DNA of 64,000 bases, taken from the IMG/VR virus record IMGVR_UViG_3300045988_112927, positions 120,519 through 184,518 of that record; one strand, 5' to 3'. Source of the stretch: a virus. Each line of letters starts with the position of its first letter. The first letter of the stretch is position 1. The translations under genes and the position numbers were made by a program. Positions 29,009 to 37,827 of the stretch are shown here, piece after piece. The notes below the pieces were generated by a model, which was not told where the DNA came from, searched no databases, and saw only the letters and a program-made list of their open reading frames with translations.

Positions 29009-29563
29009 ATGACAGGAGTAATATTATTTAGAGGTCAACCATTTCACAATGGTCATATGAATATGGTTCAAAAAGCATATTGTGATTGCCAGAAAACCAA
29101 TTCTGATTTATATATTTTTGTTGGTAGCGCAGATAAATCCGGAACTAAGCGGAACCCTCTTCCTATTGAATATCGTCTTATGCTCATTGAGGGAGCTCTC
29201 CATGAAGAGTGCGCTATGCAGGACCTCGCGCATATCCATGTAATTCCATTGGATGACATGACTGACGAAGCAGATAACAGCCATGATTGGGGTCGTTATC
29301 TCTTTATGAAGATGTTATTTTATACAAAAGATGCAGACATGACAATATATTACAGTGATAGACCGGAGATTATGTTAAGCTGGTTTGATTCTCAGGACCG
29401 CTGGTGTCTGCGCTTTAAATTCCTTGATAGATATAAGGACATTTCTGCTACACTTGTTCGTAAAATGATTCTGGAAGGATACCCAGTAGACAGATATGTT
29501 CCAGATTTTGTCAATATGCACATTGATGAAATTAAAAAGTATTTAGAGGAGGCTTCTGCATGA
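29009..29563 (+). CDS. HxGH nucleotidyltransferase, putative NMN/NaMN adenylyltransferase
   Basis: ILFRGQPFHNGH (HxGH) and IFVGSADKSG. Confidence 0.5.
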   Translation: MTGVILFRGQPFHNGHMNMVQKAYCDCQKTNSDLYIFVGSADKSGTKRNPLPIEYRLMLIEGALHEECAMQDLAHIHVIPLDDMTDEADNSHDWGRYLFMKMLFYTKDADMTIYYSDRPEIMLSWFDSQDRWCLRFKFLDRYKDISATLVRKMILEGYPVDRYVPDFVNMHIDEIKKYLEEASA

Positions 29564-29742
29564 TAGTAAAAATTGGAATTGAAGTTAGCTATGATGAATT
29601 AGAAGAATACAGAAAGGAATTCTTTAAATGCAATGGAGTAGAACTTCCAGTGGAAGTGGCAAAAAAGAATTTTATTGAGCGTTTCCTCGCTGATAAAAGT
29701 GATTATATTGATACAGACAATATTTATGTTTTTTTTGTATAA
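29560..29742 (+). CDS. hypothetical protein
   Basis: 60-aa ORF. Confidence 0.25.
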   Translation: MIVKIGIEVSYDELEEYRKEFFKCNGVELPVEVAKKNFIERFLADKSDYIDTDNIYVFFV

Positions 29743-29757
29743 AAGGAGGCGAGATAT

Positions 29758-30678
29758 ATGCCAGTTAATGATGAACTTGGAAAAAGAATGAAAGAAAATT
29801 ATGAAAATGTTGCTAAAACTCGTCTAATGCGCCGGACCCCGGTCGCAATCCGCATTGATGGCAAGGCTTTTCATACTTATACTCGTGGTTTTAAGCGTCC
29901 GTTTGATACTATACTAATCAAATCTATGCAGGAGACTACAAAGTATCTTTGTGAAAATATTCAAGGTTGTATTCTTGGATACACTCAATCAGATGAAATT
30001 ACTCTAATTCTTGTTGATTATCGCAGATTTAACAGCTCTGCATGGTTTGATTATGAAGTAGAGAAGCTTTGTTCTGTTGCAGCAAGTATGGCGACTATGG
30101 CGTTTAATCAAGCCTTTACAAGCAATATTCATATGATTATGGCTCATTTGCACTATGGAGAAGATGTTGATTTAAACATTATTAAAAGAGACTATGGTCT
30201 TACTGATGAAGACCTTGAAATAAATAGTGAGTTTTGGGAAAAGAGATGGACTCTTTATCAACAAAAAATGGGAACTGCTATGTTCGATGCTCGTTGTTTC
30301 AATATCCCAAAAGAAGAGGTTACTAATCTTATCTACTGGCGACAGCTTGATGCAACTCGTAATTCAATTCAGATGGTAGGTCAGGCTTATTTCTCTCAGG
30401 CTCAACTTGAAGGTAAAAATCAGAATGATATTCAAGAAATGCTTTGGCAGAATTATGGAATTAATTGGAACGATTTTCCTACTCACCAAAAGAGAGGAAC
30501 TTGTGTAGTTAAAAATGAAATTCCGATTGAACATTGCGGCGATGGCAAAGTGGTAGCCAAACTTCGAGATTATTCAGCACTTCCAAATGAGTGGATTATT
30601 GACACCGAAATCCCTATTTTCAAAGGCGAAGGTCGAGAATATATCGAACAACTTGTCCAGTATGTAGAGGAGCAATAG
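29758..30678 (+). CDS. Thg1-like protein (tRNA 3'-5' nucleotidyltransferase family)
   Basis: VAIRIDGKAFHTYTRGFKRPFD and GYTQSDEITLIL match the Thg1/TLP core (vvRiDG..F, YgqSDE.S). Confidence 0.55.
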   Translation: MPVNDELGKRMKENYENVAKTRLMRRTPVAIRIDGKAFHTYTRGFKRPFDTILIKSMQETTKYLCENIQGCILGYTQSDEITLILVDYRRFNSSAWFDYEVEKLCSVAASMATMAFNQAFTSNIHMIMAHLHYGEDVDLNIIKRDYGLTDEDLEINSEFWEKRWTLYQQKMGTAMFDARCFNIPKEEVTNLIYWRQLDATRNSIQMVGQAYFSQAQLEGKNQNDIQEMLWQNYGINWNDFPTHQKRGTCVVKNEIPIEHCGDGKVVAKLRDYSALPNEWIIDTEIPIFKGEGREYIEQLVQYVEEQ

Positions 30679-30697
30679 CTTCTCTAAGGATAATAAA

Positions 30698-36523: not shown

Positions 36524-36526
36524 TAT

Positions 36527-37024
36527 ATGATTGCACATATGGACGGAGATTTACTTGATGTTCAGAAAACATTAAATATTGATGTAATTTGTCATCAAGT
36601 AAACTGTCAAGGAGTTATGGGTTCTGGTATCGCGAAGCAAATTCGCGATACTTATCCAACAGTTTATGATAATTACAAACAGAAAGTTGATTCCATCGGA
36701 GACAAAGGTGCTTTACTTGGTTCTATTCAAGTTGTTGCTTTGTATGATGAATATTTCAAAAATATGAAGCATCCTTGTGTTTGTAATTTCTTTTCACAAT
36801 ATAATTATGGATATGATGGAAAGCGTTATACTTCATATGATGCTTTTTGGAGTTGTTTAAACCAGTTAAAAGGAACTCTTACAAAAGGTTCTACTATTGG
36901 TTTTCCTTATCGTATTGGTTGTGATAGAGGTGGAGCTAACTGGAATGTTATCGAGAAAATGATTGAAGAAGTTCTCGGACAAGATTATTATGTTTATATC
37001 GTACATTATAATGGAGGGAAATAA
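36527..37024 (+). CDS. macro-domain protein (ADP-ribose binding/hydrolase)
   Basis: IDVICHQVNCQGVMGSGIAKQIR. Confidence 0.55.
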   Translation: MIAHMDGDLLDVQKTLNIDVICHQVNCQGVMGSGIAKQIRDTYPTVYDNYKQKVDSIGDKGALLGSIQVVALYDEYFKNMKHPCVCNFFSQYNYGYDGKRYTSYDAFWSCLNQLKGTLTKGSTIGFPYRIGCDRGGANWNVIEKMIEEVLGQDYYVYIVHYNGGK

Positions 37025-37026
37025 AT

Positions 37027-37827
37027 ATGAGATATGCTGAAGTAGATACTGGTAATGTTCAAGCACATATTGACCATATTGTTGATTGGATTAAACGATA
37101 TTTTGTTGAAAACGGTCCGAATAGTAAGGCTGTTATTGGTATTTCCGGCGGAAAGGATAGTTCTATTGCGGCAGCCCTGTGCGTCAGAGCGCTGGGCGCA
37201 GACAGAGTATTCGGAGTGCTGATGCCACAAGGTAATCAGCATGATATTGATTGCGCTCATCAGCTTTGTGATACTCTTGGTATCCCGAATTGTACTATCA
37301 ATATTGGTTCTGTATGTAATAGTCTTTACAATGCCATTGATGAAGGCTATGATTACGATAAAATGATTAGTCATAACCCAGTAGTAGCAACAAATACCCC
37401 GGCGCGCATTCGTATGGCTACACTTTATGCAATTTCTGCGGAAGTTGGCGGACGTGTTTGCAATACCTGTAACCTTTCTGAAGATTATGTTGGCTATGCT
37501 ACTAAATTCGGCGATGGAGCGGGAGATTTCTCTCCTTTAAGCGATTATACTGTTCATGATTTGCTTATTATCGGAGACCATCTTGATGAATTACCGAAAT
37601 CTCTTGTTCATAAGGCTCCAGAAGATGGAATGTGCGGCAAGACCGATGAAGATAATCTTGGATTTACCTATGAACAGCTTGATAACTACATCTTAAAAGA
37701 GGAAATTCCGGATTATGATACATTCAATACTATTGTGCAGATGCATCGCCGCAATATGCATAAGTTGAATAAGATGCCTAAGTGTCGAAGATATAGCGGA
37801 CGAAATGACTGGGATTGTTGCTTCTAA
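37027..37827 (+). CDS. nadE: NH3-dependent NAD+ synthetase
   Basis: PP-loop GISGGKDSS. 266 aa. Confidence 0.7.
   Translation: MRYAEVDTGNVQAHIDHIVDWIKRYFVENGPNSKAVIGISGGKDSSIAAALCVRALGADRVFGVLMPQGNQHDIDCAHQLCDTLGIPNCTINIGSVCNSLYNAIDEGYDYDKMISHNPVVATNTPARIRMATLYAISAEVGGRVCNTCNLSEDYVGYATKFGDGAGDFSPLSDYTVHDLLIIGDHLDELPKSLVHKAPEDGMCGKTDEDNLGFTYEQLDNYILKEEIPDYDTFNTIVQMHRRNMHKLNKMPKCRRYSGRNDWDCCF

Follow-up and report, generated by a model that had tools for sequence, protein, structure and literature searches.

Few anti-phage strategies of bacteria are as common as the depletion of NAD+, to which NARP1 is the main known answer of phages. NARP1 consists of Adps, which from ADP-ribose (ADPR) plus ATP makes ADP-ribose pyrophosphate (ADPR-PP), and Namat, which joins ADPR-PP with nicotinamide to give NAD+; the two proteins carry the Pfam labels Prs and Nampt, respectively, and 97% of the genes of the Adps clade adjoin a Namat homolog. 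Adps possesses the core of a phosphoribosyl pyrophosphate (PRPP) synthetase without the C-terminal alpha11-alpha12 module, which is its defining signature, and its catalytic lysine is K185 in ICP1 (K162 in SpβL1) (PMC13586617). The ICP1 enzyme also has a remodelled PP loop (C215-D-G-A-A-S220), described as conserved among Adps homologs. Namat differs from Nampt in its adenine selectivity clamp, which is made of an SCL loop with a stacking Arg, Lys or Tyr and an SCH motif (GSXΦXΦXΦTRD). The variant named NARP1-AP, to which about 15% of NARP1 operons belong, has in addition a macro-domain phosphatase resembling Poa1p (Adpp), which converts the ADPR-1''-phosphate that results from aRES defence into ADPR (Osterman et al., bioRxiv 10.64898/2026.01.28.702374). 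A related gene set, in which Adps, Namat-family and macro-domain genes are accompanied by genes for a nicotinamidase (PncA) and an NAD+ synthetase (NadE), is described here from a stretch of 64,000 nucleotides of viral DNA (the window; positions 120,519 to 184,518 of IMG/VR record IMGVR_UViG_3300045988_112927).

The genes at 33369-37827 of the window very probably form a module of the NARP1-AP type. By a modest balance of probability, judged from the predicted proteins, this NAD+ reconstitution module would be routed through nicotinate, nicotinic acid adenine dinucleotide (NaAD) and NadE. The open reading frames (ORFs) of the module, with their proposed reactions, are the following:

33369..33938, + strand: PncA-like nicotinamidase, 189 aa; nicotinamide to nicotinate and NH3 (proposed)
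33931..34128, + strand: ORF of 65 aa, with an 8-nt overlap both with the PncA gene and with the Adps gene
34121..34903, + strand: Adps-like ADP-ribose diphosphokinase, 260 aa; ADPR and ATP to ADPR-PP and AMP (proposed)
35012..36523, + strand: Namat-family transferase with a non-acidic pyridine pocket, 503 aa; ADPR-PP and nicotinate to NaAD and pyrophosphate (proposed)
36527..37024, + strand: Adpp-like macro-domain protein, 165 aa; ADPR-1''-phosphate (possibly O-acyl-ADPR) to ADPR (proposed)
37027..37827, + strand: NadE, NH3-dependent NAD+ synthetase, 266 aa; NaAD, ATP and NH3 to NAD+ (proposed)

The window is AT-rich (GC content about 0.36), has all of its genes on the + strand and has the appearance of a large phage. 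The region examined is identical to a human-gut metagenome contig (ENA ERZ27229705, 190,353 bp), in which the same genes were called. A nucleotide search with the island against 50,697 phage records gave no match, so that everything reported here rests on comparison at the protein level. A first-pass annotation of the window, made from the letters alone, had named the five enzyme ORFs of the module and an NMNAT-like one, and all were found on the + strand at the coordinates it gave, with domain assignments that hold in family-model searches. It had drawn the unit as 29009-37827, starting with an NMNAT-like gene; the conserved functional unit is narrower (33369-37827), as the NMNAT-like, Thg1-like and major vault protein (MVP)-like genes upstream of PncA are not conserved neighbours.

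Like NARP1-AP, the module has adjacent genes for Adps, a Namat-family enzyme and a macro domain of the Poa1p/DarG class; unlike NARP1-AP, its transferase pocket is devoid of the nicotinamide-binding Asp (and has the changes A242S and G213N in SpβL1 numbering), NadE and PncA are near-obligate partners, and the SCH of the window's clade contains an insertion. As in the NARP1 systems of SpβL1, Bas63 and ICP1, ADPR would be pyrophosphorylated and a pyridine then transferred to it. NARP1, however, has a canonical Namat pocket (G-[ST]-[DE]-[ST] with A242) and neither NadE nor PncA (0 of 96 loci). Its product is NAD+ itself; in the module, an amidation is predicted to follow as the last step. In beginning with a nicotinamidase and ending with NadE, by way of a predicted NaAD intermediate, the module resembles the classical Preiss-Handler pathway, of which Bacillus phage G carries the phage version (PncA, PncB, NadD and NadE, with no Adps); unlike that pathway, it is without PncB and NadD, both of whose steps have apparently been replaced by Adps and the Namat-family transferase.

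The Prs-like and Nampt-like pair had been read in the first-pass annotation as NARP1 and not as an ordinary Prs plus NadV salvage route, a reading borne out by the truncations and score profile of the kinase (see below) and by a transferase that is nearest to the Namat of SpβL1 and keeps the Arg and Phe of the clamp. The transferase scores 460 bits against NF006629 and 538 bits against phrog_448; among solved sequences, it matches SpβL1 Namat (9w5x/9w5w) with 394 bits, Haemophilus ducreyi NadV with 312, Xcc Nampt with 165 and human Nampt with 132, and the top Foldseek match of its AlphaFold2 model (pLDDT 83) is 9w5x with a TM score of 0.87. The stacking Arg of the SCL is present as R36 (SpβL1 R40), in a loop 3-4 residues longer than that of NARP2 Nampt, the Phe at position 3 of the SCH as F379 (SpβL1 F392), and the residues T410-R411-D412 and the catalytic H241 and R305 are also kept; these residues are invariant across the window's clade. 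As a Namat the enzyme is nevertheless non-canonical, with Ala in place of D215, Ser in place of A242, and an SCH interrupted by 25 residues. Its SCH reads GSFS-[25 aa]-Y-N-P-Y-TRD, thus departing from the consensus by a Pro at position 7 and an aromatic residue shifted by one; the insertion amounts to 9-39 extra residues among homologs of the clade, and that of the window was modelled with low confidence (pLDDT 53-56).

Three independent alignments agree on the substitutions in the pyridine pocket (F189, R192, D215, A242, R306, D13' and Y15' in SpβL1): D215 corresponds to A211, A242 to S238 and the nearby G213 to N209, with F185, R188, R305, D9 and Y11 kept. In SpβL1 Namat, D215 hydrogen-bonds nicotinamide, and the D215A mutant has an NAD+ output about 8-fold lower. 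Reviews of Nampt hold that the hydrogen bond between Asp219 of the human enzyme (equivalent to SpβL1 D215) and the amide designates nicotinamide as the specific substrate. The D219S mutant of Nampt, studied by Khan et al. in 2006, reportedly accepts nicotinic acid. It is plausible that loss of the Asp removes charge repulsion with a carboxylate, and the new Ser and Asn, Lys or Arg side chains would be candidate carboxylate ligands. All 120 of the closest homologs (at least 69% identity) carry an N-T-A-T pocket. An exhaustive search yielded 150 representatives of clusters at 50% identity, which fall into two types. In about 94, position 215 is Asp or Glu, and position 242 is then always Ala or Gly; in about 55, position 215 is Ala or Ser (Val in one case), and position 242 is nearly always Ser. 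These non-acidic representatives usually have Lys, Asn, Ser, Pro or Arg instead of Gly at 213, and keep the clamp Arg and S-[F/Y]. Thus, the change to a non-acidic pocket is fixed and widespread.

The transferase has many homologs that exceed it in length by 70-100 residues (P0145, P0162 and others, about 575-600 aa), with local alignments that cover about 62% of the query, and some cluster representatives (P0244, P0259, P0301 and others) reach 800-1114 aa, which suggests large insertions or domain fusions. The divergent representatives P0257 and P0262, used as queries against viral contigs, gave no useful matches.

Loci around transferase homologs were probed with the proteins of the window. 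The non-acidic-pocket set of 106 loci consisted of 80 IMG/VR loci and GenBank MT835544 (together the window's clade), 12 loci of the Phass-1 lineage, and 13 contigs from metagenome-assembled genomes (MAGs) of GTDB; the acidic-pocket set of 96 loci was retrieved with Megatron, ICP1 and P0262 queries. Of the 106 non-acidic-pocket loci, 104 encode NadE and about 100 encode PncA; the two without NadE are on contigs that break off directly behind the transferase gene. Adjacency of Adps and transferase is kept in about 103. Neither NadE nor PncA was detected in any of the 96 acidic-pocket loci, which include Adps in 93 cases and a macro domain in 9. The first-pass annotation had taken the NMNAT and the nicotinamidase to suggest additional salvage routes; PncA and NadE are instead near-obligate partners of the non-acidic-pocket transferase. 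Among the 81 loci of the window's clade, NadE was found in 81, PncA in 78, Adps in 78 and the macro domain in 74, and most absences are due to truncation at contig ends. The Phass-1 lineage, which comprises a gut phage of the 'code 15 clade' and 11 IMG/VR relatives, has PncA, Adps and NadE in 12 of 12 loci, and its Phass-1 transferase, about 35% identical to that of the window, combines an R-T-A-T pocket and Ser with an uninterrupted, canonical SCH (GAYTYQYVTRD). The 13 GTDB contigs include K-T-S-T and S-T-A-T sub-types, and encode NadE wherever downstream sequence exists (11 of 11). Gene order varies while the set is kept: 47 loci have the order Adps-transferase-macro-NadE-PncA and 22 the window's order PncA-Adps-transferase-macro-NadE, and there are macro-less variants.

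The Phass-1 lineage is without the macro domain, which is replaced in the Phass-1 record and in 5 of the 11 IMG/VR relatives by a HAD-like (DxDxT) gene. In Phass-1 (locus L186, 6573-6992; also in L199-L203), this gene lies between transferase and NadE and encodes a protein of 139 aa with no Pfam match, perhaps another phosphatase by which the pathway is fed. Among the canonical Namats linked to Adps, a sub-clade with Glu in the pocket (G-S-E-T; 18 IMG/VR loci within L119-L171) has no NadE or PncA and thus behaves like the Asp type. The GTDB contigs (L211-L223) are binned to Lachnospiraceae, Oscillospiraceae, Roseburia, Lachnospira and Acetatifactor, and one to a Methanomassiliicoccaceae archaeon; in all probability these are contigs of phages that were binned, rightly or wrongly, together with their hosts, and the binning hints at Clostridia as hosts.

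In neighbour-joining trees of the transferases, rooted on the NARP2 Nampt outgroup, the window's clade and the Phass-1 clade each have 100% bootstrap support and both lie deep on the Namat side. The two clades were joined in 28 of 100 replicates, and the canonical Namats were joined with the window's clade in 70 of 100; a single origin of the pocket change and two origins are both compatible with the tree. The association of pocket, NadE and PncA has survived gene rearrangements and a divergence of the transferases down to about 35% identity. From the deep branching of both Ala-pocket lineages, the proposed deamidated form could be older than the canonical one.

A pathway that would employ every conserved gene by the simplest chemistry can be proposed. 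Upon cleavage of NAD+ by a host NADase of the SIR2, TIR, SEFIR or RES type, the macro-domain protein would turn ADPR-1''-phosphate (possibly also O-acyl-ADPR) into ADPR, which the Adps-like kinase would convert with ATP to ADPR-PP. The PncA-like nicotinamidase would hydrolyse the released nicotinamide to nicotinate and NH3, the Ala-pocket transferase, with its clamp kept, would join nicotinate with ADPR-PP to form NaAD, and NadE would convert NaAD, ATP and NH3 to NAD+. One argument for the route through nicotinate is that the module offers no other source of NaAD: with phage G gp277 and gp281 as probes, a PncB-type nicotinate phosphoribosyltransferase was found in 0 of 94 non-acidic-pocket loci and a NadD-type enzyme in 1 of 94, within 8-10 kb on either side. 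Several advantages of such a route may be imagined, speculatively: nicotinate, being charged, stays in the cell, which nicotinamide leaves by diffusion; a canonical Namat would be deprived of its substrate in hosts whose nicotinamidases are active; and nicotinate is plentiful in the gut.

An alternative is that the module is canonical NARP1-AP acting on nicotinamide, with PncA and NadE (and, in this phage, the NMNAT-like enzyme) as a separate boost to the Preiss-Handler pathway of the host. The other catalytic and clamp residues of the transferase are all conserved, as would be expected of such an enzyme, and NadE does occur in phages outside any NARP1 context: few phages other than these have it, with matches in 50 of 50,697 records, and in the NadE-positive records MT835946, MT836475, MT836279, MT835800, LR756501/2 and S-SSM7 there is no Adps or Namat nearby. 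Yet with a nicotinamidase of its own, the phage would set up a competitor for the substrate of its transferase; the changes of D215 to Ala or Ser, A242 to Ser and G213 to Asn, Lys or Arg are coupled, and fixed in about 55 of the clusters at 50% identity; and the distribution of NadE (104 of 106 loci versus 0 of 96) is hard to square with two independent routes. This alternative is considered unlikely, though it is the foremost of those weighed here.

Several observations weigh against routing through nicotinate and against the ADPR-based chemistry presumed for the window. The D215A mutant of SpβL1 Namat retains about one eighth (about 12%) of its activity with nicotinamide, so that an Ala pocket is compatible with that substrate. 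The disrupted SCH with its Pro at position 7 makes adenine clamping, and hence use of ADPR-PP, less certain for the window's enzyme than for the Phass-1 lineage. Similarity to Namat is not decisive, since a true Nampt, the NadV of H. ducreyi, also reaches 312 bits with the transferase of the window, a modest gap from the 394 bits of SpβL1 Namat. The locus counts are not phylogenetically independent, and the two best-sampled lineages were joined in only 28 of 100 replicates. The NadD of the host could be the supplier of NaAD. Finally, the catalytic specificities, above all nicotinate as substrate and NaAD as product, and the role in counter-defence are read from sequence.

Overall similarity to SpβL1 Namat was considered as proof of ADPR-PP use and was dropped when the solved sequence 9ke8 proved to be H. 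ducreyi NadV. This plasmid-borne NadV (9ke8/9keo) is far nearer to phage Namats than are the Xcc and human Nampt enzymes, has Glu at the position of the SCL Arg and has 'GVGA' replacing the 'GS' of the SCH; it may mark the bacterial lineage from which Namat originated.

The Prs-like protein was aligned with the biochemically and structurally characterised Adps of ICP1, with Staph K, Felix-type and Megatron Adps, and with Escherichia coli Prs. The first-pass annotation had called for an alignment of this kind, which reveals truncations of the Adps type together with retention of the catalytic Lys and the acceptor residues. The protein has no C-terminal alpha11-alpha12 module and, like the four Adps compared, stops some 25-30 residues short of the end of E. 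coli Prs, and it shares with these four an N-terminal deletion in which a beta-alpha unit of Prs is absent. Its K162 corresponds to the catalytic beta-hairpin Lys of ICP1 (K185), R70 to R87, H104 to H121, D142 to D161, and D191/D192 to D212/D213; the catalytic Lys and the acceptor residues are largely common to Prs as well, and are therefore necessary but not discriminating. The score profile is also informative: the kinase of the window scores 237 bits against phrog_619 and 105.5 bits against TIGR01251 (cut-off 113), Adps from NARP1 phages (that of ICP1 being the validated one) score 273-325 and 70-120 bits, and E. coli Prs scores 193 and 423 bits. The best matches among solved Prs sequences are weak (at most 68 bits). 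Thus, the truncations, a score profile unlike that of E. coli Prs, and adjacency to a Namat-family gene support assignment of 34121-34903 to the Adps type.

Other candidate discriminators between Adps and Prs were set aside. The phrog_619 model alone fails, as it gives E. coli Prs 193 bits. The PP loop of the kinase (C-S-R-G-G-T-F) is of the kind found in Adps of Firmicute phages, like that of Staph K and Megatron Adps (S-Y/K-G-G-T-F) and unlike that of ICP1 (D-G-A-A-S), but also resembles that of class III Prs (S-T-G-G-T). Of the adenine contacts of ICP1 Adps (F18, R87 and F92), the first two are kept as F14 and R70 and the third is K75, at a position that is variable (Y, E, M, E) among the other Adps compared. 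Both PP loop and adenine contacts are weak discriminators that vary among the Adps compared, and the truncations and score profile are better.

The kinase and the clamp bear on a second alternative, a deamidated salvage pathway based on PRPP, in which the Prs-like protein would make PRPP, the transferase would make nicotinic acid mononucleotide (NaMN), host NadD or the NMNAT-like enzyme would make NaAD, and NadE would finish. Namat also accepts PRPP in vitro, the SCH of the window is disrupted, the phage does encode an NMNAT-like enzyme, and the TIGR01251 score lies just under the cut-off; yet the kinase has the truncations and the score profile of Adps, the clamp Arg and the position-3 aromatic residue are invariant, the SCH of Phass-1 is fully canonical, 92 of 94 loci have neither an NMNAT nor NadD, and an ADPR-processing macro domain would have no role although it is present in 74 of the 81 loci of the clade. 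Such a pathway is distinctly improbable, less so only than the alternatives that follow.

The remaining proteins of the module fit the proposed route through nicotinate and NadE at the family level. The PncA-like protein scores 86.9 bits against the Pfam Isochorismatase model, and its best solved match is the nicotinamidase of Pyrococcus horikoshii (1ILW, 54.5 bits), with others to 3PL1 and 3O90; its catalytic Asp and Cys and its metal ligands align with D10, C133 and D52/H54/H71 of the P. horikoshii enzyme, the alignment of the Lys being ambiguous, and its score against the NCBIfam equivalog is 40.8 (cut-off 174). NadE scores 166.7 bits against Pfam NAD_synthase and 162 bits against TIGR00552 (cut-off 63.65), and consists of a single domain, with no glutaminase domain. 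The macro-domain protein matches phrog_335 ('phosphatase', 145 bits), the DarG macro model (51 bits) and, slightly below the gathering cut-off of 22, Pfam Macro (20.8 bits); its solved matches include the macro domain of DarG (5M3I, E=5e-5), the ADPR-1''-phosphate phosphatase Poa1p of yeast (6LFT, E=1e-3) and, weakly, OARD1. It is 25-38% identical to macro-domain genes inside canonical NARP1 loci, including some with an Adps-macro-Namat arrangement, which supports placing the set among modules of the NARP1-AP type.

The macro domain is also relevant to a third alternative, that the module serves to provide NAD+ in general, for LigA and Sir2 of the phage itself, and is not a counter-defence system, with the macro-domain protein recycling the O-acyl-ADPR formed by Sir2 and the NMNAT-like enzyme recycling the nicotinamide mononucleotide (NMN) released by the ligase. 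The window does encode a full-length NAD+-dependent LigA (52465-54405) and a CobB-type Sir2 deacylase (25587-26342; 280 bits, above the equivalog cut-off), and macro domains of the TARG1/Poa1p class include O-acyl-ADPR deacylases. Against this, the Sir2 gene is not conserved next to the module, and a pathway that consumes ADPR pays only when ADPR accumulates, which is a signature of NADase defence. Such a purpose is judged quite improbable, and as it concerns purpose, it is compatible with the proposed chemistry. LigA and Sir2 give the phage a direct need for NAD+ that is independent of host defence.

The NMNAT-like gene (29009..29563, + strand: nucleotidyltransferase, 184 aa) is a lineage-specific accessory outside the conserved module, 4.5 kb upstream of it. 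All solved matches of its single-domain product are NMNATs (1F9A with 36 bits, 1EJ2, and Francisella NadM 2QJT), which places it with the archaeal/NadM type, and its HxGH (FHNGH) and SxTxxR (SATLVR) motifs align, while its NCBIfam score of 57 is below the cut-offs of 127 and 181; it is a credible NMNAT at the family level. No NMNAT was found within 8-10 kb on either side in the 93 other non-acidic-pocket loci, and a pattern scan of IMG/VR for the NMNAT-like protein returned one close relative only, which is uninformative on co-occurrence. The enzyme might recycle NMN released by LigA, or might adenylate NaMN or NMN made from PRPP by the transferase; in the latter case, the phage would combine ADPR-based and PRPP-based routes. 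No phage with both NARP1 and NARP2 was observed by Osterman et al.

A fourth alternative, specific to this phage, is a route of the Francisella type, in which nicotinate and PRPP would give NaMN, NadE would convert NaMN to NMN, and the NadM-like NMNAT would convert NMN to NAD+. Some NadE enzymes amidate NaMN, as Sorci et al. reportedly found in 2009, and the NMNAT-like protein is of the archaeal/NadM type and matches Francisella NadM (2QJT); the gene, however, is not conserved with the module, and this route is thought very improbable indeed.

In encoding Nampt-family and NMNAT-like enzymes, this phage is also like those with NARP2 (Nampt and NMNAT-Nudix of KVP40). The transferase is only 27-30% identical to the Nampt of VS1 and RB43, from which it is set apart by a long branch, and Adps is present; unlike the NMNAT-Nudix of NARP2, the NMNAT-like protein is without a Nudix domain, and its gene is distant from the transferase gene and not conserved. 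NARP3 (PnuC and NadR) was set aside as a match on account of its different architecture.

The core of Adps, Namat and macro domain is a known system, whereas the non-acidic pocket and the partnership with NadE and PncA are apparently undescribed: no description of either in connection with NARP1 was found in the searchable literature (which includes few subscription-journal papers), no paper there names NARP1 together with NadE or with nicotinamidase, and the core NARP1 papers are silent on nicotinic acid, on NadE, on nicotinamidase and on deamidation. Chances are about even that the non-acidic transferases, about one third of the 150 representatives, are an unrecognised branch of Namat that catalyses the formation of deamido-NAD from nicotinate and ADPR-PP, within a 'deamidated NARP1' comprising Adps, PncA, NadE and an optional macro-domain or HAD-like phosphatase, and, as part of the same claim, that this branch is abundant among Clostridia-associated phages of the human and animal gut. 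If so, this would be a new enzymatic reaction, the synthesis of NaAD directly from ADPR-PP and nicotinate, and a new counter-defence pathway of four or five genes, which would allow phages to rebuild NAD+ from ADPR even where nicotinamide is quickly deamidated or lost, and which would explain the carriage of nicotinamidase and NadE by some phages. Homology tools that label every pair of Adps and Nampt-like genes 'NARP1' would then be merging two pathways with different substrates and gene requirements, which a sequence rule would separate: Asp or Glu with Ala versus Ala or Ser with Ser, at positions 215 and 242 of SpβL1. The distinction would be relevant to phage engineering against gut Clostridia and to the flow of NAD+ precursors in the gut, where nicotinate is abundant.

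The arrangement of the module was examined for features of expression. The gaps between transferase and macro domain (3 nt) and between macro domain and NadE (2 nt) are short, and together with the 8-nt overlaps among PncA, the 65-aa ORF and Adps they support co-expression; 108 nt separate Adps from the transferase. The following intergenic sites were noted by consensus match only:

33278..33334, + strand: hairpin, then a TG-extended promoter-like site (TTGATT-N17-TATAAT), upstream of PncA
34911..34965, + strand: hairpin and an identical promoter-like site, between Adps and the transferase
37842..37901, + strand: hairpin and an identical promoter-like site, after NadE, at the 3' boundary of the module

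These cassettes suggest two adjacent transcription units across 33369-37827, split between Adps and the transferase. In all, four identical promoter-like sites (TTGATT, a 17-nt spacer with TG, and TATAAT) are intergenic, at 33306-33334, 34937-34965, 37873-37901 and 38669-38697, and three of the four are directly 3' of a hairpin with a T-tract, resembling a recurring terminator-promoter cassette of the phage. The window also encodes a full-length sigma-70-type factor (19022-20038). The 65-aa ORF at 33931-34128 has no Pfam or PHROG match and no homolog in the related loci probed, and may be a real coupled gene or no gene at all.

Two genes unrelated to NAD+, one Thg1-like and one MVP-like, lie between the NMNAT-like gene and PncA. 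The latter (30761-33268) encodes a protein of 835 aa that matches the shoulder domain of the eukaryotic MVP (84.6 bits) and a vault repeat (33.8 bits), followed by a long coiled-coil tail; it is unusual for a phage, and is also present in the closest relatives (loci L010 and L011). The Thg1-like gene, for a 3'-5' nucleotidyltransferase, belongs to a possible set for RNA repair or tRNA restoration (29758-30678, 21581-22996, 38925-39464, 37934-38653, 39465-40031 and 18091-18930), whose other products are an RNA-ligase-like protein, a P-loop protein similar to polynucleotide kinase, and three phosphoesterases of the calcineurin type; the set may counter anticodon nucleases.

An array of 15 tRNA genes occupies 1967-11857 on the + strand, and includes at 3456-3528 a tRNA with anticodon TTA, classified by ARAGORN as tRNA-Stop, a putative ochre (UAA) suppressor. 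The genes of the window read normally under code 11, and the module-bearing relative Phass-1 belongs to the 'code 15 clade'; recoding of a stop codon in late genes is possible. Other predicted products of the window include an SPFH/flotillin-like protein with a long coiled coil rich in Ala, Glu and Lys (40076-41611), a PIN-PhoH fusion (42547-43785), a DUF2828/DUF7788 protein (12339-13883) and both subunits of DNA gyrase (47213-52368).

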